DNA of 64,000 bases from Alphaproteobacteria bacterium (GTDB lineage Bacteria > Pseudomonadota > Alphaproteobacteria > JAAXGF01): contig CAUVXB020000001.1 in the NCBI GenBank assembly GCA_963555825.3, positions 480,001 through 544,000 of the forward strand, in the 5' to 3' direction. The position numbers and the translations under genes were made by a program. The notes beneath the pieces were generated by a model that worked only from the letters and a program-made list of their open reading frames with translations, was not told the DNA's origin and did not search any database. Positions 12,495 through 49,341 of this stretch are shown here, in pieces. Numbering within the stretch: the stretch's first letter is position 1; every line of letters starts with the position of its first letter.

Positions 12495-13397
12495 ATGCAG
12501 CTAAGCATGTTCACCCGTCGGACACTGGCGCTCGTGTTTGCCATCCTGTGGCCGTGGTCCTCAAGCCTGCACGCCCAGTCCGAGGCGTTGATGGAGGCCT
12601 ACCGCCAGGGCGAAACCCTCTACCATGCGGGCCAATACGAGCAAGCCATCCCGCTCTTTCGTAAGGCGCTTGAACTCGGTGAGCAGGAGTTCGGCCCTGA
12701 GCATCCCACGACGGCGGCCTTGCTGAACAGCCTGGCCCTGCCGTACGAAAAGCAGGGCCGCTACGAGGCGGCGGAGCCGCTCTACAAGCGGGCGCTGGCA
12801 GTGCGAGAGAAGGTTCTCGGGCCGGACCATCCCGATGTCGCCACGAGCCTCAACAACCTCGCCGTGCTGTACGGTGACCAGGGTCGCTACGAGGCGGCGG
12901 AGCCGCTCCACAGGCGGGCGCTGGCCATCCGGGAGAAGGCTCTCGGGCCGGAACATCCCCATGTCGCCCTAAGCCTCAACAACCTCGCCGCGCTGTACTT
13001 AGCCCGGGGCCGCTACCAGGCGGCAGAGCCGCTCTACAAGCGGGCGCTGGCGATCCGGGAGAAGGCTCTCGGGCCGGAACATCCCCATGTCGCCCTAAGC
13101 CTCAACAACCTCGCCGCGCTGTACTTAGCCCGGGGCCGCTACCAGGCGGCAGAGCCGCTCTACAAGCGGGCGCTGGCGATCCGGGAGAAGGCTCTCGGGC
13201 CGGAACATCCCGATGTCGCCGCGAGCCTCAACAGCCTGGCCCTGCTGTACAAAAGGCAGGGTCGCTACGAGGCGGCAGAGCCGCTCTACAAGCGGGCGCT
13301 GGCAGTGCGAGAGAAGGTTCTCGGGCCGGACCATCCCTCGGTCGCCCTAAGCCTCAACAACCTCGCCGTGCTGTACTACACCCAGGGTCGCTACGAG
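12495..13397 (+). pseudogene. secreted TPR-repeat protein (42-aa kinesin-light-chain-type repeats), truncated by IS256
   Basis: Signal peptide, then 126-bp tandem repeats encoding GPxHPxVAxSLNNLA. Breaks mid-repeat at the IS256 end (13398). Confidence 0.85.
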
Positions 13398-13415
13398 GAG
13401 CTATAACCGAATCTT

Positions 13416-15216
13416 GACGGGGCGGTAAAAAGTCGATTCCTCATGAGAGTCGGCTGGATTATAATTGTGCATGTTTACTTTACGCGACCGACGGACTGGG
13501 GAATTGTTTGATCGCTGGTCCGATTTCGGGGACAAACGTCGGCGCCTGATGGAGCAATCCTGGGCCGGGGTTTTTCGGAACCATCTGCTTGTCGAACTTC
13601 CGGTTGACGATCTTTGCCGTCACCTTGATGAACGCATGGGCCGACCATCGAAGGATCTACACGTTGTCATCGGGGTCTTGCTTTTGCAGCAGCTGCACGA
13701 TCTGAGCGATGCAGAGACCGTCGAGGCCCTGGCCTTCAATATGGCGTGGCACTATGCCTTGGACGTGCGCAGCGAAGCGGACAGCTATTTCTGTGAGAAA
13801 ACCCTGCGCAACTATCGCCGTCTGTTTATCGAACAAGGTCTCGATGAATTGCTGTTCCGGTGTTTGACGGATCGGCTGGTGCAGGGGTTCTCTGTCGATA
13901 CCAGCCACCAACGCATGGATTCGACGGCCCTTCGTTCGGCAATGCGGGCGCTGACACGACTTGGTATCGTTGTTGAGAGCATCTCGAAGTTTGCCCGTGA
14001 GCTTGAGCGATATCATCCCGGTCTGCACGAGCAGATCAGCAAGGAGGTGATCCGCCGCTATGTCGATCGCGAGGGTAATGGCGCGTTCGCGAATACGGCG
14101 CCGAGTGTTTCAAAACGGCGCCTCGGCGAAGCGGGTCAGTATCTCCTAGCCCTGGTGCTGCAATTCCGTGACACGGCGGCGGCAAAGCTTTCCAGTTTTG
14201 CGATCCTGGAGAGGGTTCTGCGCGATCAGTTCGAGATCGTTGATGATGAGTATGGCGATCGTGACGCAACGCGCGCCGCGATTCGAGATCCAAAGGATGT
14301 GCCGTGCGATACCGTCGGCAATCCGGCCGACCCGGACGCGAGCTACAACGCGCACAAGGGTCAAGGATACATGGCGCAGATCGTCGAAACCTATTGTGAA
14401 GATGTCAGTAACGAGGCGGTTGCCGCGACACCGGACCTCATCACCCACGTGGAGGTCCACAAGATGACGGTGCATGACGGCCATCGCTTAGCCGATGCGC
14501 TGGATGATCTGAGCGAGCGCGCGCTGACGCCGGCGGTGATGCTGGGTGATTCACATTACGGTTCCAGTGACAACATGGCTCTGACGCGCGAACAGAACAT
14601 CAATCTCGTGGCGCCCGCACGACCGCCGAAAGGCGCCGTCTCGGGACGGTTGACGTTGGAGGATTTCACTCTCAACGAAGAAGGCTTGGTCTTGCGCTGT
14701 CCCAATAACGTCGAACCGGTTTCAGCCTCGCTCGCCAAAGCCAAGCTGCAGGCCCGTTTCGACCTCTCCATCTGCCAAAAATGTCCCGATATACTGCGAT
14801 GTCCCGTGCAGGCGGCCAAGCGTGACGGCCAATTTTCCCGCTTTCAATATACCCCGGCCAGGGCTGCCAACCAAAAGCGCCGGCTTTATGAACAAAGCGA
14901 TGCCTTCCGCAACGTCTACAGATGGCGGGCCGGCATAGAAGCGACCATGTCGCGATTAAAGTACCAGATGAACCTGGCTCACCTACGCATTCGCGGCATG
15001 CCGGCCATGCGCTACGTGGTCAATCTGCGTGCCCTCGGCCTCAATATCCGACGCTGCGCGGCAATCGCACCATAAAAAACGAAGCCAAGGAGAAGCCAAG
15101 GGTAGGTAATATCAGGTTTTATCCACCAGCAACGCGGAGACAGGCAAATATTCTTCACCGAACCGCAAAGACCTGTACAAGCACGCCATCGGCCAACAAC
15201 TTTTTATCGCCCCGTC
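13416..15216 (+). mobile_element. IS1182-like element, copy 1 (intact, 1801 bp)
   Basis: TIRs GACGGGGCGGTAAAAAGT / ACTTTTTATCGCCCCGTC; 7-bp TSD GAATCTT at 13409-13415 and 15217-15223. Confidence 0.9.
13471..15075 (+). CDS. IS1182/IS5-like DDE transposase
   Basis: DUF772-like GRPS..LLLQQLHDLSD, MDST, GDSHYGS, Cys cluster, YRWRAGIEATMS. Confidence 0.88.
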   Translation: MFTLRDRRTGELFDRWSDFGDKRRRLMEQSWAGVFRNHLLVELPVDDLCRHLDERMGRPSKDLHVVIGVLLLQQLHDLSDAETVEALAFNMAWHYALDVRSEADSYFCEKTLRNYRRLFIEQGLDELLFRCLTDRLVQGFSVDTSHQRMDSTALRSAMRALTRLGIVVESISKFARELERYHPGLHEQISKEVIRRYVDREGNGAFANTAPSVSKRRLGEAGQYLLALVLQFRDTAAAKLSSFAILERVLRDQFEIVDDEYGDRDATRAAIRDPKDVPCDTVGNPADPDASYNAHKGQGYMAQIVETYCEDVSNEAVAATPDLITHVEVHKMTVHDGHRLADALDDLSERALTPAVMLGDSHYGSSDNMALTREQNINLVAPARPPKGAVSGRLTLEDFTLNEEGLVLRCPNNVEPVSASLAKAKLQARFDLSICQKCPDILRCPVQAAKRDGQFSRFQYTPARAANQKRRLYEQSDAFRNVYRWRAGIEATMSRLKYQMNLAHLRIRGMPAMRYVVNLRALGLNIRRCAAIAP

Positions 15217-15304
15217 GAATCTTGTGTACGGCGTTGAAATGAAGGCGGCGTATCCTGGTGATTGTTGATGTCACCACTTGAGCTAAGCCAAGGAAGGATA
15301 CGCC

Positions 15305-16549
15305 ATGAAAGAGAATACCGTTGTTGCTTTTCAAAACCCATCTGATTTTCAGAAAGATCCGTTGACGGAAGTCCTACAAGCTGGAGCTCGCGAGTTGTTG
15401 GCCCAAGCCGTTGAGGCCGAGGTCTCCGTGTTTTTGGGTAGCCATGCGGCGCTTGTTGACGCCGCCGGCCGCCGCCGGGTTGTCCGCAATGGATATCTGC
15501 CGGAACGCTTCATCCAGACCGGGATCGGCCCGGTGAGCGTGCGCCAACCCCGTGTGCGGGACCGGGGGGACGGCGCCATCCGCTTCACGTCGGCGATCCT
15601 GCCGCGCTATCTGCGCCGCGCCAAGAGCCTGGAAGACCTTTTGCCATGGCTGTATCTGAAGGGCATTTCCACCGGCGACTTCGGGGAAGCCTTGGCGGCG
15701 CTCCTGGGGAGCTCCGCGCCGGGGCTTTCGGCCTCCACGATCACCCGGCTGAAAGAGGTCTGGGGGGTTGAGGCGGAGCGCTGGCAACGGCGCGACCTCA
15801 CGGCCAAGCGCTACGTCTATTTCTGGGTGGACGGCATCTATTTCAGCGCCCGCATGGAGGAAGAGAAGCAGTGCATCCTGGTGATCGTCGGGGCCACGGA
15901 CAAGGGACAGAAGGAACTGATCGCCATCGCCGACGGCTATCGCGAAAGTGAGCAGTCCTGGCTCGAAGTTCTGCTCGATCTCAAGCGGCGCGGCCTTGAA
16001 ATGGGTCCGCAACTGGCGCTCGGCGACGGCGCGCTCGGCTTCTGGAAGGCGCTCCGCCAAGTCTACCCAGGCGCCCGCGAGCAACGCTGCTGGGTTCACA
16101 AGACGGGCAACGTCTTGAACAAGCTGCCCAAGGGTCTGCAAAAGAAAGCCAAGGGGCGCCTGCAAGACATCTGGATGGCCGAAACCAGGAAGGATGCCGA
16201 GAGCGCCTTCGACTTCTTCCTGGAAGCCTACGGGCCGAAGTACGACAAGGCCGCGGCCTGCCTGGCCAAGGACCGCGACGTCCTGCTGACGTTCTACGAC
16301 TTCCCCGCCGAGCACTGGAAGCATGTACGCACGACCAACCCCATCGAGAGCACGTTCGCCACGGTTCGTCTGCGCACCTACCGGACCAAGGGCTGCCTGT
16401 CGCGCAAGACGGCGATGGCCATGGTCTTCAAACTATGCCAGTGCGCTCAGAGAAAATGGAGAAAACTCGATGGATCGAACCATCTCGCCGAGATCATTCG
16501 CGGCGTCAAATTCGTAGATGGAGAACGCCAGGATCGCGCCGCCGCATGA
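15305..16549 (+). CDS. IS256-family (Mutator-like) transposase
   Basis: VRNGYLPER, LYLKGISTGDF, WVDG, GDGALGFW, QRCWVHK, RTTNPIES. Confidence 0.95.
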   Translation: MKENTVVAFQNPSDFQKDPLTEVLQAGARELLAQAVEAEVSVFLGSHAALVDAAGRRRVVRNGYLPERFIQTGIGPVSVRQPRVRDRGDGAIRFTSAILPRYLRRAKSLEDLLPWLYLKGISTGDFGEALAALLGSSAPGLSASTITRLKEVWGVEAERWQRRDLTAKRYVYFWVDGIYFSARMEEEKQCILVIVGATDKGQKELIAIADGYRESEQSWLEVLLDLKRRGLEMGPQLALGDGALGFWKALRQVYPGAREQRCWVHKTGNVLNKLPKGLQKKAKGRLQDIWMAETRKDAESAFDFFLEAYGPKYDKAAACLAKDRDVLLTFYDFPAEHWKHVRTTNPIESTFATVRLRTYRTKGCLSRKTAMAMVFKLCQCAQRKWRKLDGSNHLAEIIRGVKFVDGERQDRAAA

Positions 16550-16569
16550 TCAGCCCATACACAACTTTT

Positions 16570-18100
16570 GACGGGGCGGTAAAAAGTTGTTGGCCGATGG
16601 CGTGCTTGTACAGGTCTTTGCGGTTCGGTGAAGAATATTTGCCTGTCTCCGCGTTGCTGGTGGATAAAACCTGATATTACCTACCCTTGGCTTCTCCTTG
16701 GCTTCGTTTTTTATGGTGCGATTGCCGCGCAGCGTCGGATATTGAGGCCGAGGGCACGCAGATTGACCACGTAGCGCATGGCCGGCATGCCGCGAATGCG
16801 TAGGTGAGCCAGGTTCATCTGGTACTTTAATCGCGACATGGTCGCTTCTATGCCGGCCCGCCATCTGTAGACGTTGCGGAAGGCATCGCTTTGTTCATAA
16901 AGCCGGCGCTTTTGGTTGGCAGCCCTGGCCGGGGTATATTGAAAGCGGGAAAATTGGCCGTCACGCTTGGCCGCCTGCACGGGACATCGCAGTATATCGG
17001 GACATTTTTGGCAGATGGAGAGGTCGAAACGGGCCTGCAGCTTGGCTTTGGCGAGCGAGGCTGAAACCGGTTCGACGTTATTGGGACAGCGCAAGACCAA
17101 GCCTTCTTCGTTGAGAGTGAAATCCTCCAACGTCAACCGTCCCGAGACGGCGCCTTTCGGCGGTCGTGCGGGCGCCACGAGATTGATGTTCTGTTCGCGC
17201 GTCAGAGCCATGTTGTCACTGGAACCGTAATGTGAATCACCCAGCATCACCGCCGGCGTCAGCGCGCGCTCGCTCAGATCATCCAGCGCATCGGCTAAGC
17301 GATGGCCGTCATGCACCGTCATCTTGTGGACCTCCACGTGGGTGATGAGGTCCGGTGTCGCGGCAACCGCCTCGTTACTGACATCTTCACAATAGGTTTC
17401 GACGATCTGCGCCATGTATCCTTGACCCTTGTGCGCGTTGTAGCTCGCGTCCGGGTCGGCCGGATTGCCGACGGTATCGCACGGCACATCCTTTGGATCT
17501 CGAATCGCGGCGCGCGTTGCGTCACGATCGCCATACTCATCATCAACGATCTCGAACTGATCGCGCAGAACCCTCTCCAGGATCGCAAAACTGAAAAGCT
17601 TTGCCGCCGCCGTGTCACGGAATTGCAGCACCAGGGCTAGGAGATACTGACCCGCTTCGCCGAGGCGCCGTTTTGAAACACTCGGCGCCGTATTCGCGAA
17701 CGCGCCATTACCCTCGCGATCGACATAGCGGCGGATCACCTCCTTGCTGATCTGCTCGTGCAGACCGGGATGATATCGCTCAAGCTCACGGGCAAACTTC
17801 GAGATGCTCTCAACAACGATACCAAGTCGTGTCAGCGCCCGCATTGCCGAACGAAGGGCCGTCGAATCCATGCGTTGGTGGCTGGTATCGACAGAGAACC
17901 CCTGCACCAGCCGATCCGTCAAACACCGGAACAGCAATTCATCGAGACCTTGTTCGATAAACAGACGGCGATAGTTGCGCAGGGTTTTCTCACAGAAATA
18001 GCTGTCCGCTTCGCTGCGCACGTCCAAGGCATAGTGCCACGCCATATTGAAGGCCAGGGCCTCGACGGTCTCTGCATCGCTCAGATCGTGCAGCTGCTGC
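16570..18100 (-). mobile_element. IS1182-like element, copy 2, 5' part lost at an IS3-like insertion
   Basis: Near-identical reverse complement of copy 1; preceded by AACTTTT of the IS256 IRR. Confidence 0.9.
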
Positions 18101-18166
18101 TGAGTCGGACCCGATTTCCTTGGACACAGAATTGGCTTAATCGAAGTGTCCAAGGAGGACCGGAAC

Positions 18167-18577
18167 ATGACCGACAATTTTGAGAACAAAGTTGCTGTTG
18201 ATGGGCCTGTGGTAAACGAGGGCGAGCTTGGCTCGTCCACGTTTTCCCCGGGCCAGGTTTCGCCGGCAGGCCCTCTGGGACTTGGCCAGCGGTGGACGGT
18301 GACGCGCAAGCGTGAGGTTGCCCTGCGGCTTTTGCGTGGCGAGCCGGTGGAACTTTTGTCGCGGCAGTTGGGCGTGGAGATTTTCCGGCTCGAGCAGTGG
18401 CGTGAGAAGGCGATCGCCGGGATCGATGCCTCGCTCAAGGAACGCAAGGGCGATCCGGTGAAGGCGGAACTGGACATCGCCATGAAGCGGATCGGGGAGT
18501 TGATCATGCAGGTGGAACTGCTGGAGGCCAAGACGGAGACGTCCGGCCCTTTGGGGCGGCGGAGGTCGCGGCGATGA
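18167..18577 (+). CDS. IS3-like OrfA (HTH plus coiled coil)
   Basis: RBS AAGGAGG; RKREVALRLLRGE..LSRQLGV. ATGA overlap with orfB. Confidence 0.8.
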   Translation: MTDNFENKVAVDGPVVNEGELGSSTFSPGQVSPAGPLGLGQRWTVTRKREVALRLLRGEPVELLSRQLGVEIFRLEQWREKAIAGIDASLKERKGDPVKAELDIAMKRIGELIMQVELLEAKTETSGPLGRRRSRR

Positions 18578-19485
18578 GTGCCGCCACCTCTCCCGGCACG
18601 GGTTTGGCCTACGGCCTCCAGCGGGTCTGTGCGGCCTGGGGTTTTGCCCGTTCCTCGTTCTACGCCATGAAATCCCGGCAGCAGGCCACCGCTGAGCGCC
18701 CACCAGCAAAGCGCCGGGGACCGAAGCCCTCGATCTCGGACGAGGCTCTGCTGGTGGCCATCGAGGCCGACCTGGAGGCATCCCCCTGGGAGGGCGAGGG
18801 ACACCGCAAGGTCTGGGCTCGGCTTCGGGTCTGTCGTGGCATCCGTGTTTCCCGCAAGCGGGGGCTCCGGGTGATGCGCGAGAACAACCTGCTCTCGCCC
18901 CATCGCTGCCGCCGCCGTGGCGGAAATCCCCATGTCGGTGAGATCATCACCCATGCCCCCAACCTCATGTGGGGCACGGACGGCGTTCGGGTGTTCACGG
19001 TGGACGACGGCTGGGGCTGGATATTCACCGCCATCGAGCATTGGAACGCCGAGTGCGTCGGCTGGCATGTGTGCAAGCGAGGCGACCGCTTCGCCGCCCT
19101 TCAGCCGATCTCCATGGGGCTTGCGAGGCTGTATGCCTCGACCTCCGCCGGTGCGGCGCGGGGGCTGGCCTTGCGGATGGATCACGGCTCCCAGTATCTG
19201 TCGGACCACTTCACCAACCAGATCAAGTTCTGGGGCATCCAGCCGTCCTACGCCTTCGTCGAACAGCCCCAGACCAACGGCGTCGCCGAGAGGTTCAATC
19301 GCACGCTCAAGGAACAGATCATCCATGGCCGCATCTACCGCAACATCGCGGAGCTGCGGAACGCCGTCCGCGGGTTCGTCGAACAGTACAATGCCCAGTG
19401 GATCGTGGAGAAGAACGGCTACCTGAGCCCCGCTCAAGCTCGTCAGGCGTGGCACACCGCGATGTCACTCAGGCCCGCCGCATGA
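18574..19485 (+). CDS. IS3-like OrfB integrase-core (rve) transposase
   Basis: WGTDG, MDHGSQY, NGVAERFNRTLKE. Confidence 0.9.
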   Translation: MSAATSPGTGLAYGLQRVCAAWGFARSSFYAMKSRQQATAERPPAKRRGPKPSISDEALLVAIEADLEASPWEGEGHRKVWARLRVCRGIRVSRKRGLRVMRENNLLSPHRCRRRGGNPHVGEIITHAPNLMWGTDGVRVFTVDDGWGWIFTAIEHWNAECVGWHVCKRGDRFAALQPISMGLARLYASTSAGAARGLALRMDHGSQYLSDHFTNQIKFWGIQPSYAFVEQPQTNGVAERFNRTLKEQIIHGRIYRNIAELRNAVRGFVEQYNAQWIVEKNGYLSPAQARQAWHTAMSLRPAA

Positions 19486-19568
19486 GACAAACTTGTGTCC
19501 AAGGAACCGGGTGCGATACAATTGTCTGCTCAGCCCTAGAATCCAGACGTTGGCGACTCAAGCACACG

Positions 19569-19826
19569 GCGTCCGCTTTCGAGCAGAAAGCCGACATGGA
19601 ACGTCTTGTCCCGCGATTCAGTGTCTCTAAGGTCTGCTAACGAGCGGGAAGCGGACGTTGCCGCTCAGCCTCACAAGCAGACCTCAAGCGATCTCGTCGC
19701 CGACGTCCGCTTCGGAGCGGTAAGCAGACGTAAATCGCGCACCTTCCGAAATTGGCGGCAGGTACGTCTGCTTCCGAGCAGAAAGCGGACCTCGCGGCGT
19801 GGGCCGCCTAATGTCTGCAAATAGCC
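19569..19826. repeat. cluster of REP-like palindromes GTCYGCT-N11-AGCRGAC
   Basis: Units at about 19571-19595, 19632-19656, 19703-19731 and 19764-19792, plus one split by IS1182 (19810-19826 + 21511-21527). Confidence 0.75.
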
Positions 19827-21510
19827 CAGACTGTGTAAGAACGTTTGCTGCGTGATCTGTACGGCGCGTCTTTGGCTTCGATGATCCGTCGCGGCGGGTA
19901 TTCCGGGATTAAGGATTTTCGCCACTCGTGCGGACCTGTCGGCCGGCTGGCGCCGGTGTGAGCTGCGATTTGGCCGGATATGGGCGCAATTTGCGGCGCA
20001 GAGAGGCCTATGCGGTCCTCATCGCCGCGATCAGCGGGTCGATGCCCGTGATGTTCATGACGCGCTTGAGATTGTAGGCCAGCACGTGCAGGGCCATCTC
20101 GGTCCTCACCCGTTTCAGCGTCTTCGTCTGGAAATGCGTCGCGCCCATCCAGGACTTGATGGTGCCGAAGGGATGCTCGGCCGTCTCGCGCCGCCGACGC
20201 ATCGCCTCCGGGTGCTCGTCGAGCCGCCTCTCGACGGCCTCGAGAACATGCTCGTGCTGCCAGCGGGTGATGCGGCGCTGCTTGGCCGTGGTGCAGCGAT
20301 GCTTGATGGCGCATCCCTGACAGGCGTTGGTCCAGTAGCGCCGCATGCTCAGCCCCCTCTCCTGGCTGGTGAAGCGGTAGACCAAACGCTCGCCGGCCGG
20401 GCAGCGATAGACATCGTCGGCGGCCAGATAGACGAAGTCCTGTTTGCCGAAGCGGCCCTTGGCCTTGGCTCCAGAGGTCAGCGGCTTAGGCAATGTGACG
20501 GTGATGCCGGCCTCATCGCAGGCCAGAATCTCCTTGCCGTTGTAGTAGCCGCGATCGGCAACGACATCCAACTCGTCGGTCTCCAGAGCCGCCTTGGTCC
20601 GCTTCGCCATGGCTGAGAGCTGGGCGCGGTCGGTGCCCTGATTGGTCACCTCGTGGGCGACGATCAGGTGGTGCTTGGTGTCGACGGCGGCCTGAACGTT
20701 GTAGCCGACCACGCCGGAACCCCGGCCGCTCGTCGCCATCGAGCGGGCATCGGGATCGCTCAGAGAGATCTGCTGGTCCGGGCTCGCACGCCGCTCGACT
20801 TCAAGCGCCTTCAGGCGCCGCATCTCCTGCTTGAGGATCGCGATCTTGTCGGCCAGACGAGTCGTCTTGGTCGTGCGCGCCAGCGACGGCTCTTGCCGGT
20901 CGGCGCTGTCCAACTGGTCCAGATAGCGCGCAACGCTCTCCTCGATCTGCGCCACCCGCCGCGCCATCTTGGCCCGCGTGAAGTTCCTGTCCCGGCTGTT
21001 GACCGCCTTGAACTTCGAGCCATCGATCGCCACGCTCGCCTCGGCGAACAGCCCGAGTTGCCGGCACAGCGCGACGAACCGGGCGCAGACCTTGCGGATC
21101 GCACGGCCGTTGTCCTTGCGGAAGTCGGCGATCGTCTTGTGATCCGGCGCCAGCCGGCCGACCAGCCACATCACTTCCACATTGCGCCCGGCCTCCCTCT
21201 CGAGCCGACGGCTCGACTGAACCCGGTTGAGATAGCCGTAGATGTAGAGCTTCAACAAATCGCAAGGATGATAGGCCGGCCTGCCGGTCGCCAGCGGCTC
21301 GACCCGGTCGAACCCGAGGCCGCCAAGATCGAGCTCATCGACGAAGACGTCGATCGCCCGAACCGGGTTGTCGTCGCCGATCCAGTCTTCCAGGCGCTCC
21401 GGAAACAACGTGCCCTGGCTGCGATCGACACCCTCGACAAAACGCTTCATCAGACCCTCCCGCCAAAGCACGAGAGAATCATAACACCATCGACGTTTTT
21501 ACACAGGCTG
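19827..21510 (-). mobile_element. IS1182-family element
   Basis: IRs CAGACTGTGTAAGAACGT / CAGCCTGTGTAAAAACGT; 4-bp TSD AGCC. Confidence 0.9.
20008..21450 (-). CDS. IS1182-family transposase
   Basis: GRPAYHP, SSRRLE, PDHKTIADFR, IDGSK, ADRGY, EHPFGTIK. Confidence 0.95.
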   Translation of the reverse strand: MKRFVEGVDRSQGTLFPERLEDWIGDDNPVRAIDVFVDELDLGGLGFDRVEPLATGRPAYHPCDLLKLYIYGYLNRVQSSRRLEREAGRNVEVMWLVGRLAPDHKTIADFRKDNGRAIRKVCARFVALCRQLGLFAEASVAIDGSKFKAVNSRDRNFTRAKMARRVAQIEESVARYLDQLDSADRQEPSLARTTKTTRLADKIAILKQEMRRLKALEVERRASPDQQISLSDPDARSMATSGRGSGVVGYNVQAAVDTKHHLIVAHEVTNQGTDRAQLSAMAKRTKAALETDELDVVADRGYYNGKEILACDEAGITVTLPKPLTSGAKAKGRFGKQDFVYLAADDVYRCPAGERLVYRFTSQERGLSMRRYWTNACQGCAIKHRCTTAKQRRITRWQHEHVLEAVERRLDEHPEAMRRRRETAEHPFGTIKSWMGATHFQTKTLKRVRTEMALHVLAYNLKRVMNITGIDPLIAAMRTA

Positions 21511-45219: not shown

Positions 45220-45843
45220 TCAGCTCTCCTTGAGCTGTTCCTCCAGCTCCGCCACCGCGCCGTCGCGGCGGTGGTAGCCCATCTTCTCGACCATCTCCTT
45301 GGCCTTCGCCCAATGCTCGCGTGCCTTGGGCTGATCGCCCATCGCGACATACAGCCGCGCGTACTCCAAATGCTCGTCGGCTTGGTGCAGCCGCATCCCC
45401 CCGCGCTCGGCGATCAGCATAGCTTCATTGAGGTCCCACCGCGCCTGGTCGAAATCACCCCGCACCCGATGCAACGTCGCCCGCGTCAAGAGGCCACGGG
45501 GTAGCTCATGCTGTATGCCTGCCTGCGGGATGCCGACCACAGCCTCGTCCAAGTGCTCGGCAGCCTTCGAGAAATCGCCTATGCCTTGTTCCTGCGCCTC
45601 AGCTAAATGGGCGCGCCCCAGCGTCAGATGATCCAGCGCGATGTCTATGAGGCTGCCACCAAATTTTACTTCTAATTCCAGCGTCTGACTGGCTCGCTTT
45701 TGCACCTCTTGGTGCCTCCCCCGCTCCAGAAGCAGGTCGCAGTACTGAAAGCCTCGTAACGAATAGAGGAATCGAAACCTCGGCTGCAGCTCTTTTTGAA
45801 TCACCTCGGCCTCGCGAAAGAGTTCTTCGGCTTCGGCTGCACG
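45220..45843 (-). pseudogene. TPR-like C-terminal remnant of a large (STAND-type?) protein, cut at an IS256 end
   Basis: LYSLRGFQYCDLLL...IALDHLTLGRA...MRLHQAD; frame open up to the IS junction. Confidence 0.65.
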
Positions 45844-47150
45844 GAGCTATAACCGAATCTTGACGGGGCGGTAAAAAGTTGTTGGCCGATGGCGTGCTTG
45901 TACAGGTCTTTGCGGTTCGGTGAAGAATATTTGCCTGTCTCCGCGTTGCTGGTGGATAAAACCTGATATTACCTACCCTTGGCTTCTCCTTGGCTTCGTT
46001 TTTTATGGTGCGATTGCCGCGCAGCGTCGGATATTGAGGCCGAGGGCACGCAGATTGACCACGTAGCGCATGGCCGGCATGCCGCGAATGCGTAGGTGAG
46101 CCAGGTTCATCTGGTACTTTAATCGCGACATGGTCGCTTCTATGCCGGCCCGCCATCTGTAGACGTTGCGGAAGGCATCGCTTTGTTCATAAAGCCGGCG
46201 CTTTTGGTTGGCAGCCCTGGCCGGGGTATATTGAAAGCGGGAAAATTGGCCGTCACGCTTGGCCGCCTGCACGGGACATCGCAGTATATCGGGACATTTT
46301 TGGCAGATGGAGAGGTCGAAACGGGCCTGCAGCTTGGCTTTGGCGAGCGAGGCTGAAACCGGTTCGACGTTATTGGGACAGCGCAAGACCAAGCCTTCTT
46401 CGTTGAGAGTGAAATCCTCCAACGTCAACCGTCCCGAGACGGCGCCTTTCGGCGGTCGTGCGGGCGCCACGAGATTGATGTTCTGTTCGCGCGTCAGAGC
46501 CATGTTGTCACTGGAACCGTAATGTGAATCACCCAGCATCACCGCCGGCGTCAGCGCGCGCTCGCTCAGATCATCCAGCGCATCGGCTAAGCGATGGCCG
46601 TCATGCACCGTCATCTTGTGGACCTCCACGTGGGTGATGAGGTCCGGTGTCGCGGCAACCGCCTCGTTACTGACATCTTCACAATAGGTTTCGACGATCT
46701 GCGCCATGTATCCTTGACCCTTGTGCGCGTTGTAGCTCGCGTCCGGGTCGGCCGGATTGCCGACGGTATCGCACGGCACATCCTTTGGATCTCGAATCGC
46801 GGCGCGCGTTGCGTCACGATCGCCATACTCATCATCAACGATCTCGAACTGATCGCGCAGAACCCTCTCCAGGATCGCAAAACTGAAAAGCTTTGCCGCC
46901 GCCGTGTCACGGAATTGCAGCACCAGGGCTAGGAGATACTGACCCGCTTCGCCGAGGCGCCGTTTTGAAACACTCGGCGCCGTATTCGCGAACGCGCCAT
47001 TACCCTCGCGATCGACATAGCGGCGGATCACCTCCTTGCTGATCTGCTCGTGCAGACCGGGATGATATCGCTCAAGCTCACGGGCAAACTTCGAGATGCT
47101 CTCAACAACGATACCTGTATCGCACCCGGTTCCTTGGACACAAGTTTGTC

Positions 47151-48062
47151 TCATGCGGCGGGCCTGAGTGACATCGCGGTGTGCCACGCCTGACGAGCTT
47201 GAGCGGGGCTCAGGTAGCCGTTCTTCTCCACGATCCACTGGGCATTGTACTGTTCGACGAACCCGCGGACGGCGTTCCGCAGCTCCGCGATGTTGCGGTA
47301 GATGCGGCCATGGATGATCTGTTCCTTGAGCGTGCGATTGAACCTCTCGGCGACGCCGTTGGTCTGGGGCTGTTCGACGAAGGCGTAGGACGGCTGGATG
47401 CCCCAGAACTTGATCTGGTTGGTGAAGTGGTCCGACAGATACTGGGAGCCGTGATCCATCCGCAAGGCCAGCCCCCGCGCCGCACCGGCGGAGGTCGAGG
47501 CATACAGCCTCGCAAGCCCCATGGAGATCGGCTGAAGGGCGGCGAAGCGGTCGCCTCGCTTGCACACATGCCAGCCGACGCACTCGGCGTTCCAATGCTC
47601 GATGGCGGTGAATATCCAGCCCCAGCCGTCGTCCACCGTGAACACCCGAACGCCGTCCGTGCCCCACATGAGGTTGGGGGCATGGGTGATGATCTCACCG
47701 ACATGGGGATTTCCGCCACGGCGGCGGCAGCGATGGGGCGAGAGCAGGTTGTTCTCGCGCATCACCCGGAGCCCCCGCTTGCGGGAAACACGGATGCCAC
47801 GACAGACCCGAAGCCGAGCCCAGACCTTGCGGTGTCCCTCGCCCTCCCAGGGGGATGCCTCCAGGTCGGCCTCGATGGCCACCAGCAGAGCCTCGTCCGA
47901 GATCGAGGGCTTCGGTCCCCGGCGCTTTGCTGGTGGGCGCTCAGCGGTGGCCTGCTGCCGGGATTTCATGGCGTAGAACGAGGAACGGGCAAAACCCCAG
48001 GCCGCACAGACCCGCTGGAGGCCGTAGGCCAAACCCGTGCCGGGAGAGGTGGCGGCACTCAT
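47151..48062 (-). CDS. IS3-like OrfB transposase
   Basis: Same protein as 18574-19485. Confidence 0.9.
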   Translation of the reverse strand: MSAATSPGTGLAYGLQRVCAAWGFARSSFYAMKSRQQATAERPPAKRRGPKPSISDEALLVAIEADLEASPWEGEGHRKVWARLRVCRGIRVSRKRGLRVMRENNLLSPHRCRRRGGNPHVGEIITHAPNLMWGTDGVRVFTVDDGWGWIFTAIEHWNAECVGWHVCKRGDRFAALQPISMGLARLYASTSAGAARGLALRMDHGSQYLSDHFTNQIKFWGIQPSYAFVEQPQTNGVAERFNRTLKEQIIHGRIYRNIAELRNAVRGFVEQYNAQWIVEKNGYLSPAQARQAWHTAMSLRPAA

Positions 48063-48469
48063 CGCCGCGACCTCCGCCGCCCCAAAGGGCCGGACGTCTC
48101 CGTCTTGGCCTCCAGCAGTTCCACCTGCATGATCAACTCCCCGATCCGCTTCATGGCGATGTCCAGTTCCGCCTTCACCGGATCGCCCTTGCGTTCCTTG
48201 AGCGAGGCATCGATCCCGGCGATCGCCTTCTCACGCCACTGCTCGAGCCGGAAAATCTCCACGCCCAACTGCCGCGACAAAAGTTCCACCGGCTCGCCAC
48301 GCAAAAGCCGCAGGGCAACCTCACGCTTGCGCGTCACCGTCCACCGCTGGCCAAGTCCCAGCGGGCCTGCCGGCGAAACCTGGCCCGGGGAAAACGTGGA
48401 CGAGCCAAGCTCGCCCTCGTTTACCACAGGCCCATCAACAGCAACTTTGTTCTCAAAATTGTCGGTCAT
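48059..48469 (-). CDS. IS3-like OrfA
   Basis: Same protein as 18167-18577. Confidence 0.8.
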   Translation of the reverse strand: MTDNFENKVAVDGPVVNEGELGSSTFSPGQVSPAGPLGLGQRWTVTRKREVALRLLRGEPVELLSRQLGVEIFRLEQWREKAIAGIDASLKERKGDPVKAELDIAMKRIGELIMQVELLEAKTETSGPLGRRRSRR

Positions 48470-49341
48470 GTTCCGGTCCTCCTTGGACACTTCGATTAAG
48501 CCAATTCTGTGTCCAAGGAAATCGGGTCCGACTCATCAACAACGATACCAAGTCGTGTCAGCGCCCGCATTGCCGAACGAAGGGCCGTCGAATCCATGCG
48601 TTGGTGGCTGGTATCGACAGAGAACCCCTGCACCAGCCGATCCGTCAAACACCGGAACAGCAATTCATCGAGACCTTGTTCGATAAACAGACGGCGATAG
48701 TTGCGCAGGGTTTTCTCACAGAAATAGCTGTCCGCTTCGCTGCGCACGTCCAAGGCATAGTGCCACGCCATATTGAAGGCCAGGGCCTCGACGGTCTCTG
48801 CATCGCTCAGATCGTGCAGCTGCTGCAAAAGCAAGACCCCGATGACAACGTGTAGATCCTTCGATGGTCGGCCCATGCGTTCATCAAGGTGACGGCAAAG
48901 ATCGTCAACCGGAAGTTCGACAAGCAGATGGTTCCGAAAAACCCCGGCCCAGGATTGCTCCATCAGGCGCCGACGTTTGTCCCCGAAATCGGACCAGCGA
49001 TCAAACAATTCCCCAGTCCGTCGGTCGCGTAAAGTAAACATGCACAATTATAATCCAGCCGACTCTCATGAGGAATCGACTTTTTACCGCCCCGTCAACT
49101 TTTGACAATAGCTCAGTCGCGGCATGAGGTACCCTGACCGCGGGGCGGCGCATCGCCGCGCTCAGCGGGGCGCGGGCAAGTGCGGTTGCTGGCAAGAAAC
49201 GCTAGCCGGGGTCGCGCGGCGTTCTTGGAAACCTGATGATCTCGGCGTCATGCGTGGCGGTCACCAACGGCGACGATTCCTCGGGCCCATCGTCATTCGA
49301 AAGCTCAGTCGCCTGCACAGCGGTCAGCGGAAGGACGTTAA

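Follow-up and report, generated by a model that had tools for sequence, protein, structure and literature searches.

We examined a 64,000-nucleotide stretch of the genome of an Alphaproteobacteria bacterium (GCA_963555825.3, contig CAUVXB020000001.1, positions 480,001 to 544,000; hereafter the window), in which three copies of one insertion sequence (IS), here called ISA, lie against the terminal inverted repeats (IRs) of an IS256-family element, here called IS256-A. The whole genome comprises 6.04 Mb in two contigs, with a GC content of 65%. ISA is 1801 bp long, has 18-bp terminal inverted repeats of its own (TIRs, with one mismatch), and duplicates 7 bp of its target. Searching the window with the TIR pattern GACGGGGCGGTAAAAAGT, at up to three mismatches, returned matches at 13416, 15216, 16570, 45862, and 49096, where 0.03 matches would be expected and none of 100 shuffles reached five. 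These are the five visible ends that a first-pass annotation, made from the sequence alone, had described as adjoining IS256 IR sequence, and all five do.

Copy 1 (13416 to 15216, plus strand) is intact. Its left neighbor is the outermost 18 bp, or tip, of the left IR of IS256-A (13398 to 13415, plus strand; GAGCTATAACC followed by GAATCTT), of which the last 7 bp form the left copy of the target duplication. On its right, the second GAATCTT (15217 to 15223, plus strand) leads into GTGTACGG, giving a clean 7-bp duplication within a 26-bp IS256-type left IR. The remainder of IS256-A (15217 to 16569, plus strand) runs from this inner left IR through a transposase open reading frame (ORF) of 414 aa (15305 to 16549) to an inner right IR that ends in CATACAC and AACTTTT. 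The encoded protein scores 199 bits with Pfam Transposase_mut and 320 bits with NCBIfam NF033543, for which the family cutoff is 150. Directly after AACTTTT, at 16570, copy 2 begins (16570 to 18100, minus strand); it occupies the right IR of that IS256-A copy and comprises ISA positions 271 to 1801, having been truncated by an IS3-like element. For copy 3 (45862 to 49096, minus strand), the earlier description holds in part: it adjoins IS256 IR sequence on both sides but does not lie inside a whole IS256. It stands instead between two 18-bp tips with no IS256 body, that of the IS256-A left IR at its right end (45844 to 45861, plus strand) and that of the right IR at its left end (49097 to 49114, plus strand; AACTTTT followed by GACAATAGCTC), and the 7-mers on its two sides are unlike. 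We refer to this arrangement as tip-ISA-tip.

An intact IS256-A measures 1375 bp, and among its 15 intact copies in the genome, 12 have a 9-bp duplication and 1 has an 8-bp duplication. Its IRs of about 26 bp, conserved subterminal block, and 8- to 9-bp duplications are all traits of the IS256 family; subterminal TGT-type motifs are also given as a feature of that family in the available text of PMC7780238. The two IRs that had been rebuilt from the ISA flanks exist uninterrupted elsewhere in the genome, GAGCTATAACCGAATCTTGTGTACGG in 25 places and GAGCTATTGTCAAAAGTTGTGTATGG, counting a near variant, in 29, and in both of them the target 7-mer occupies nucleotides 12 to 18 from the tip, as had been proposed. 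In one IS256-A copy (G000 C2, near 2546370, minus-strand scan), the first bases of the left tip are replaced by a tandem CACAGAGA-type repeat.

The sole ORF of ISA (13465 to 15075) encodes a transposase of 536 aa and is kept in 26 of the 27 full copies in this genome. The protein matches PF05598 (residues 59 to 130), PF01609 (325 to 524), and PF13751 (425 to 531), all above gathering scores and in the order expected for the IS1182 family, DUF772 followed by DDE_Tnp_1/DDE_Tnp_1_6. Members of the IS1182 family also have a single transposase ORF, TIRs, and a target duplication within a characteristic size range; the corresponding values for ISA are one ORF of 536 aa, 18-bp TIRs, and a 7-bp duplication. 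Among NCBIfam models, the IS1182 model NF033551 is the best match and aligns end to end (model positions 31 to 487 of 488), followed at a distance by ISNCY (62 bits) and IS5 (58 bits); its score of 173.9 bits nevertheless falls below the curated cutoff of 270. Identity to annotated IS1182-family transposases on plasmids is 27 to 28%, and the relatives in a large protein collection, 56 to 99% identical among the 120 listed, carry generic names only. The Pfam and NCBIfam matches include no IS110 family and are to DDE transposase families. A BLASTP comparison with the IS256 transposase, looking for a common DNA-binding domain, showed no similarity (E = 6.3). The earlier IS1182-like label is a fair one as to best family and full-length alignment, although the model score does not reach the family cutoff; judged by these comparisons, ISA appears to be an autonomous DDE insertion sequence of an uncharacterized IS1182-like clade, and we term it IS1182-like rather than file it as a member. 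Complete ISA copies also occur in RNA-library contigs, a presence that does not show transcription.

Across the genome, ISA keeps to the fixed IR position proposed from the window. The ISA ends recovered by BLAST number 37 on the left and 39 on the right, and they lie at the 18|19 boundary of IS256-type IRs except for one insertion at a look-alike site. A regular-expression census counted 74 ends, 39 on the tip side, 32 on the inner side, and 3 others, the last comprising the look-alike site at its far (inner) side and a degraded copy, itself within an IR. These ends make up 34 paired copies and 6 lone ends. With 33 of the 34 paired copies in IS256 IRs, the possibility raised at the outset, that most copies would prove to have non-IS256 flanks, is not borne out. 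Fourteen paired copies read tip, left end, right end, inner IR, and 15 read inner IR, left end, right end, tip; three are tip-ISA-tip, one occupies the look-alike site, and one is degraded. A perfect 7-bp duplication flanks 24 of 27 uninterrupted copies, the other three consisting of two that have decayed at their ends and one recombinant.

Four IR types are used: the left and right IRs of IS256-A, the left IR of a second element, IS256-C, and a single GAGCTATACCC followed by GAAAGTT. The IS256-C left tip also heads an IS256 variant of 84% identity. Counted by tip, occupancy is 13/38 for A-left, 14/43 for A-right, 10/15 for C-left, and 0/16 for C-right. The two IS256-C ends differ (Fisher P = 6.8e-5) and the two IS256-A ends do not, with the qualification that ISA copies within a genome are kin, so that such P values overstate independence and are a guide only. 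Of the 32 IS256-A elements whose core is exact, 15 have both ends intact, 16 carry ISA in at least one IR (4 of them in both), and 1 has another lesion.

From the occupied sites, an asymmetric target motif is strongly favored, in which ISA would read GAG[C/A]TAT, a four-base stretch whose last base is usually C, and the duplicated 7-mer RAAWSTT. Two staggered cuts bracket the 7-mer, which gets duplicated. The motif corresponds to the 18 outermost bp of the terminal IRs in one subgroup of IS256-family elements, so that in this genome of 65% GC, good ISA sites are almost only IS256 ends, used in either orientation. Outside the repeated IS256-type tips and two single occupied sites, a relaxed version of the motif occurs at only 11 sites, all of them empty. 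The occupied look-alike site, GAACTATATCC followed by GATCATC, is single-copy and has no IS256 transposase within 2.5 kb. The first-pass annotation had suggested that conserved sequence on both sides of the 7-mer is read, GAGCTAT toward the tip and GTGTA toward the inside. The GAGCTAT half of that suggestion is upheld by its fixed spacing in the Amylibacter and metagenome flanks described below. The GTGTA half is not: IS256-C has GGTGA where IS256-A has GTGTA, and non-IS256 sites, those of the Amylibacter genome, show no conservation beyond the 7-mer, so the inner block is not read.

The Amylibacter sp. metagenome-assembled genome (MAG) OZ250147.1 carries 31 near-full ISA copies of 98 to 99% identity and gave no match to an IS256-A transposase query. 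Among its 59 unique flanks, 13 have GAGCTAT at exactly −18 with no more than two of the seven bases differing, against a background of 0.94% (P = 1.3e-14). When the offset was varied, 18 gave 13 matching flanks, 17 gave 4, 11 and 7 gave 3 apiece, and no other offset gave more than 1; beyond the 7-mer, the flanks share no conserved sequence. A 7-bp duplication is present in 12 of the 30 copies examined. At these loci (L085 to L114), where 12 of 30 keep matching 7-mers, some flanks recur with different partners (e.g., L108 and L111), and the two features together indicate that many ISA-mediated rearrangements have probably taken place. Because copies multiply in a genome without a detected IS256-type transposase, ISA is a facultative specialist on IS256 ends and not an obligate hyperparasite; of the hyperparasitic lifestyle first attributed to it, the specialization stands and the dependence, given the roughly 31 copies in this MAG, does not.

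Searches of other genomes and of metagenomes extended the range of the target. At the DNA level, the genomes of 40 relatives held no ISA beyond the window's own genome. A genome-collection scan with one genome per species returned 53 loci. ISA at 98 to 99% identity occurs in at least seven assemblies, labeled Rhodospirillales, Paracoccaceae, Amylibacter, and Alphaproteobacteria, and a fragment lies in a Thermodesulfobacteriota MAG; near-identical ISA in different alphaproteobacterial families (L009 to L060) points to what would be very recent horizontal spread. An IS256-family transposase lies within 1.5 kb at only 10 of the 53 loci. Relatives at 71 to 88% identity in the collection are found between GAGCTAT-type tips or inner IR halves. 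One 71% relative is plasmid-borne in a cultured Microvirga strain, where it forms a tip-IS-tip unit flanked on the outside by a 9-bp direct repeat, ATGGAGTGG.

Metagenomes were scanned with an alignment of 13 sequences; 80 loci were retained, and the 44 at 45 to 86% identity were analyzed. Automatic IR ends on these loci over-extended into the palindromic AA..TT of the target, and ends were hence anchored on the conserved TIR; they were found in 41 of the 44 loci and gave 66 unique flanks. Of these, 23 carry GAG[CA]TAT at −18 with at most one mismatch, and the other offsets from 9 to 25 all gave zero except for a single match at 20. The remaining flanks comprise 18 that are inner-IR-like, 6 that adjoin another IS copy, and 19 that fit none of these classes. 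Across 55 unique tip-like 18-mers, positions on which no selection had been made agree with the motif (C11 in 38/55, R12 in 54/55, A13 in 50/55, T17 in 52/55, and T18 in 39/55). The same target is kept by metagenome relatives as divergent as about 50% identity. The other 36 metagenome loci, at 39 to 45% identity (L159 to L194), stand outside the flank count and have different TIRs (GATG...CGTAAAAAGT type), and no GAGCTAT-type flanks were noticed among them. Head-to-tail tandem ISA copies exactly 7 bp apart (e.g., separated by GAATCTT) occur in other genomes and metagenome relatives (L012, L044, L059, L128, L129, and L155), not in the window's own genome; they could be second insertions at a regenerated half-site or a tandem-dimer intermediate.

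We consider it highly probable that target choice is made by the transposition machinery of ISA itself on the basis of DNA sequence, through the asymmetric motif found at IS256 ends. The motif would be read by the ISA transposase itself, with neither IS256 transposase nor a guide RNA. A search for guide-RNA-like matches between ISA and its targets found none to GAGCTAT and only the 9-mer AAAAGTTGT, which occurs both at the right end of ISA and in the right IR of IS256-A; chance alone gives about four seven-mer matches per target. Several observations weigh against this interpretation. Only about 13 of 30 insertions in the Amylibacter MAG have a strong motif, which makes the motif a preference and not a requirement. 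The IS256-C right IR, GAGCTATGTCC followed by GAAAGTT, is never used, which the motif does not explain, and very similar tips, some with G at position 8, are used elsewhere. Contact between the transposase and the motif is something that we infer, and by sequence, the protein has no relative with a solved structure (a profile search of solved structures gave no match at E values up to 1). The evidence from outside the window's genome comes mostly from MAGs and short contigs, where repeats can be misjoined. Moreover, an IS256 with ISA at one end only may still move. As a separate observation, the IS256-C right IR (e.g., G000 C1:1813211+1378) reads GAGCTATGTCC+GAAAGTT+GGTGACG; it fits the motif and has a second GAGCTAT at positions 26 to 32.

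Insertion of ISA separates the terminal 18 bp of IS256 from its subterminal GTGTA/GGTGA block, and such a split IR should cripple that IS256 end. In ISCth4, an IS256-family element, bp 1 to 14 and bp 15 to 26 of the TIR both contribute, and integration in vitro still proceeded, though at a lower rate, from a junction in which one TIR had been cut back to 14 bp, as reported in the part of PMC7780238 available. Loss of IS256 mobility is therefore likely, on our analysis, where both IRs carry ISA and uncertain where one does; the immobilization of the host element suggested in the first-pass annotation is plausible. Where ISA lies in both IRs in direct orientation, homologous recombination between the two copies would remove the IS256 body and leave tip-ISA-tip. 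The precursor and the product of this deletion are both present in the genome: an IS256-A with directly oriented ISA in both IRs lies at C1:883113-888067, and tip-ISA-tip is found at three loci, window copy 3 included. None of the three keeps an outer duplication, and one joins the tips of two IS256 types, so exchange between different elements also occurs.

A tip-ISA-tip unit might alternatively be a vehicle, with ISA between its two 18-bp tips mobilized in trans by IS256 transposase in the manner of a miniature inverted-repeat transposable element with cargo. The arrangement is recurrent, occurring at the three loci in this genome and at L040, L045, L053, L058, L120, L121, L132, and L148, and the outer direct repeat of the Microvirga unit, at 9 bp, has the length of an IS256 duplication. 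Against this, all three units in the window's own genome are without an outer repeat, and deletion between two direct ISA copies, for which a precursor exists, explains both the tip-ISA-tip form and a retained 9-bp repeat. We regard mobilization of such units as unlikely.

The first-pass annotation had left open whether ISA recognizes the DNA motif or IS256 ends bound by IS256 transposase, in which case the motif would be a mere proxy for the protein. Nearly all ISA copies in this genome do lie in IRs whose elements have transposase genes that are intact and 100% identical, and the unused C-right IR is not accounted for by the motif alone. However, about 31 copies have accumulated in the Amylibacter MAG, where no IS256-A-type transposase was found with our query and the motif still stands at −18. 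Occupancy differs between the IS256-C left and right IRs (10/15 versus 0/16), to both of which one transposase presumably binds; the IRs of IS256 elements whose transposases are only 70% identical are both used; and one ISA occupies the single-copy look-alike site. Direct reading of the DNA motif is strongly favored over recognition of transposase-bound ends, and capture through the bound protein seems to us decidedly improbable.

Passive carriage, in which one or a few ancestral ISA insertions were spread by IS256 transposition of the composite, would account for some of what is seen. Of the 11 IS256-A::ISA composites whose outer flanks can be read, 7 keep an outer 9-bp duplication; the same right-end variant and right junction recur in three 100% identical ISA copies; and an IS256-family junction tolerates one short TIR in vitro in the available portion of PMC7780238. 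Yet six class-by-orientation combinations are populated. One near-identical ISA haplotype is found in A-left, in both orientations, and in A-right, and another in A-right and in C-left, again in both orientations; single IR classes, conversely, hold haplotypes 15 to 24 changes apart. The same position is occupied in other IS256 types, in other genomes, and by distant relatives, and ISA has multiplied in a genome without detectable IS256. The haplotypes shared across IR classes, together with the two orientations and the four IR types, rule out passive carriage as the sole cause, and a single ancestral insertion, another outcome that had been foreseen as fatal to targeting, is contradicted on the same grounds. 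We hold carriage in general to be very unlikely as the explanation.

The idea that ISA inserts at random and that only harmless insertions in IS ends survive is scarcely credible: IS ends are neutral places and this genome is crowded with ISs, but every insertion falls at one IR base position, neither the rest of the 1375-bp IS256 nor any of the 79 full copies of the IS3-like element, where insertion would be equally harmless, contains an ISA end, and the motif stands at fixed spacing in a genome without detectable IS256. Finally, misjoined repeats in a highly repetitive genome almost certainly did not create the junctions, given the perfect 7-bp duplications in 24 of 27 copies, the same junction types in several assemblies of other organisms, and contigs from four public runs that end or continue exactly at 13416 and 15216, with IRs both filled and empty. 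These contigs come from independent data, in which ISA words were found in 20 listed runs from 13 studies, several of the runs being labeled sponge metagenome; the four runs belong to three studies. Loose contig ends show an empty left IR, with GAGCTATAAC directly before 15216, and further IR junctions, such as TTGTCAAAAG and TCACCAACTTTC, stand beside the ISA left end. The run contigs support the ISA boundaries and fall short of long-read proof.

The neighborhood of the ISA copies contains a second kind of mobile element and interrupted host genes. The IS3-like element that truncates copy 2 (18101 to 19520, plus strand) is 1420 bp long, has two ORFs with rve domains, and stands outside the targeting system. 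Another 1420-bp copy is nested in ISA copy 3 (47116 to 48535), with a 14-bp duplication, TCAACAACGATACC. The element scores 150 bits with the NCBIfam IS3 model, slightly below the cutoff of 160. Among its 79 full copies in the genome, direct repeats measure 14 bp in 46, 15 bp in 7, 5 bp in 1, and 2 bp in 1, and 24 have none; IS3-family duplications are 3 to 5 bp, so that 14 to 15 bp would be very unusual. Downstream of the element, 19540 to 19830 holds several similar short GC-rich hairpin-like units (GTCCGCTT..GAGC.GAAAGC.GAC) that may be repetitive extragenic palindromic (REP)-like repeats. IS256-A has cut an ORF with visible tetratricopeptide repeat (TPR)-like units (12495 to 13406, plus strand), which forms the host gene context of copy 1. 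Both IS256 tips in the window cut such ORFs, the other lying at 45220 to 45804 on the minus strand, and the TPR-like ORFs carry long near-identical internal repeats (12800 to 13400).

For a plain DDE IS, such strictness in choosing sites is unusual, the best-known strict cases using helper proteins or guide RNAs. The ISA rule, consisting of the motif, its spacing, and the duplicated 7-mer, is defined well enough for a plasmid assay and for tests with purified protein. ISA is also a clear example from nature of predation between mobile elements, a relationship retained across deep divergence and many habitats. Its visible consequences are split IRs, lost IS256 bodies, and rearrangements, which bear on how IS expansions are limited in symbiont-like genomes. 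For annotation, an IS256 with a 1.8-kb insert 18 bp from its tip becomes recognizable, as do orphan 18-bp tips around an IS1182-like element. A bolder synthesis, which we advance tentatively and with rather less than even confidence, is that the IS1182-like clade is a specialized parasite of IS256 whose DDE transposase alone, unaided by guide RNA or helper protein, reads an asymmetric ~18-bp motif at fixed spacing, that it acts as a brake on IS256 expansion by splitting IS256 ends and then, through paired insertions, deleting IS256 bodies, and that ISA, once framed by two tips, might also be mobilized by the IS256 transposase.

ISs that insert into the IRs of other transposons are a known functional kind, and it is the pairing of an IS1182-like element with IS256 that appears new. 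The first-pass annotation had named no such precedent; in agreement, literature searches, whose scope left aside supplements and ISfinder (where a database note is possible), gave no published IS1182-family or IS1182-like element with specificity for IS256 IRs. The IS1182 family itself is the closest in sequence, being the best-matching family, with an end-to-end alignment and the same Pfam order. ISA duplicates 7 bp, as against the 4 bp given for the IS1182-family element ISPse1 in the available text of PMC3281130.

The closest functional parallel is with IS4321 and IS5075, of the IS1111 group of the IS110 family, which Partridge and Hall reportedly described in 2003 in the 38-bp IRs of Tn21-family transposons. 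Like ISA at 18|19, these elements occupy one fixed position in the terminal IRs of another element and are found almost only there. They reportedly insert in a single orientation and are not known to make a duplication, whereas ISA inserts in both orientations (14 versus 15). The available text of PMC11187229 treats the IS4321 target logo and describes elements of this type as having a DEDD transposase and subterminal repeats, with target choice by a seekRNA. ISA, in contrast, has a DDE transposase, terminal IRs, a 7-bp duplication, and no guide-like complementarity.

Confinement to repeated genomic sequence is also shared with ISs that target REP and enterobacterial repetitive intergenic consensus (ERIC) repeats, such as IS1397 and ISKpn1. 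ISPpu9 likewise inserts in REP sequences, according to the available portion of PMC12288879. These elements hit host repeats, and ISPpu9 belongs to the IS110 family, whereas ISA hits the functional ends of another mobile element. The nearest counterpart with a DDE transposase is IS231A of the IS4 family, reportedly described at the ends of Tn4430 by Mahillon et al. in 1987 and by Hallet et al. in 1991 and 1994. IS231A combines a sequence preference with a preference for DNA shape, and its best natural site lies in the Tn4430 terminal IR; its consensus is a loose bent-DNA site that is widely used elsewhere too. That pairing brings an IS4-family element into a Tn3-family transposon, whereas the site used by ISA is kept clade-wide, down to about 50% transposase identity.

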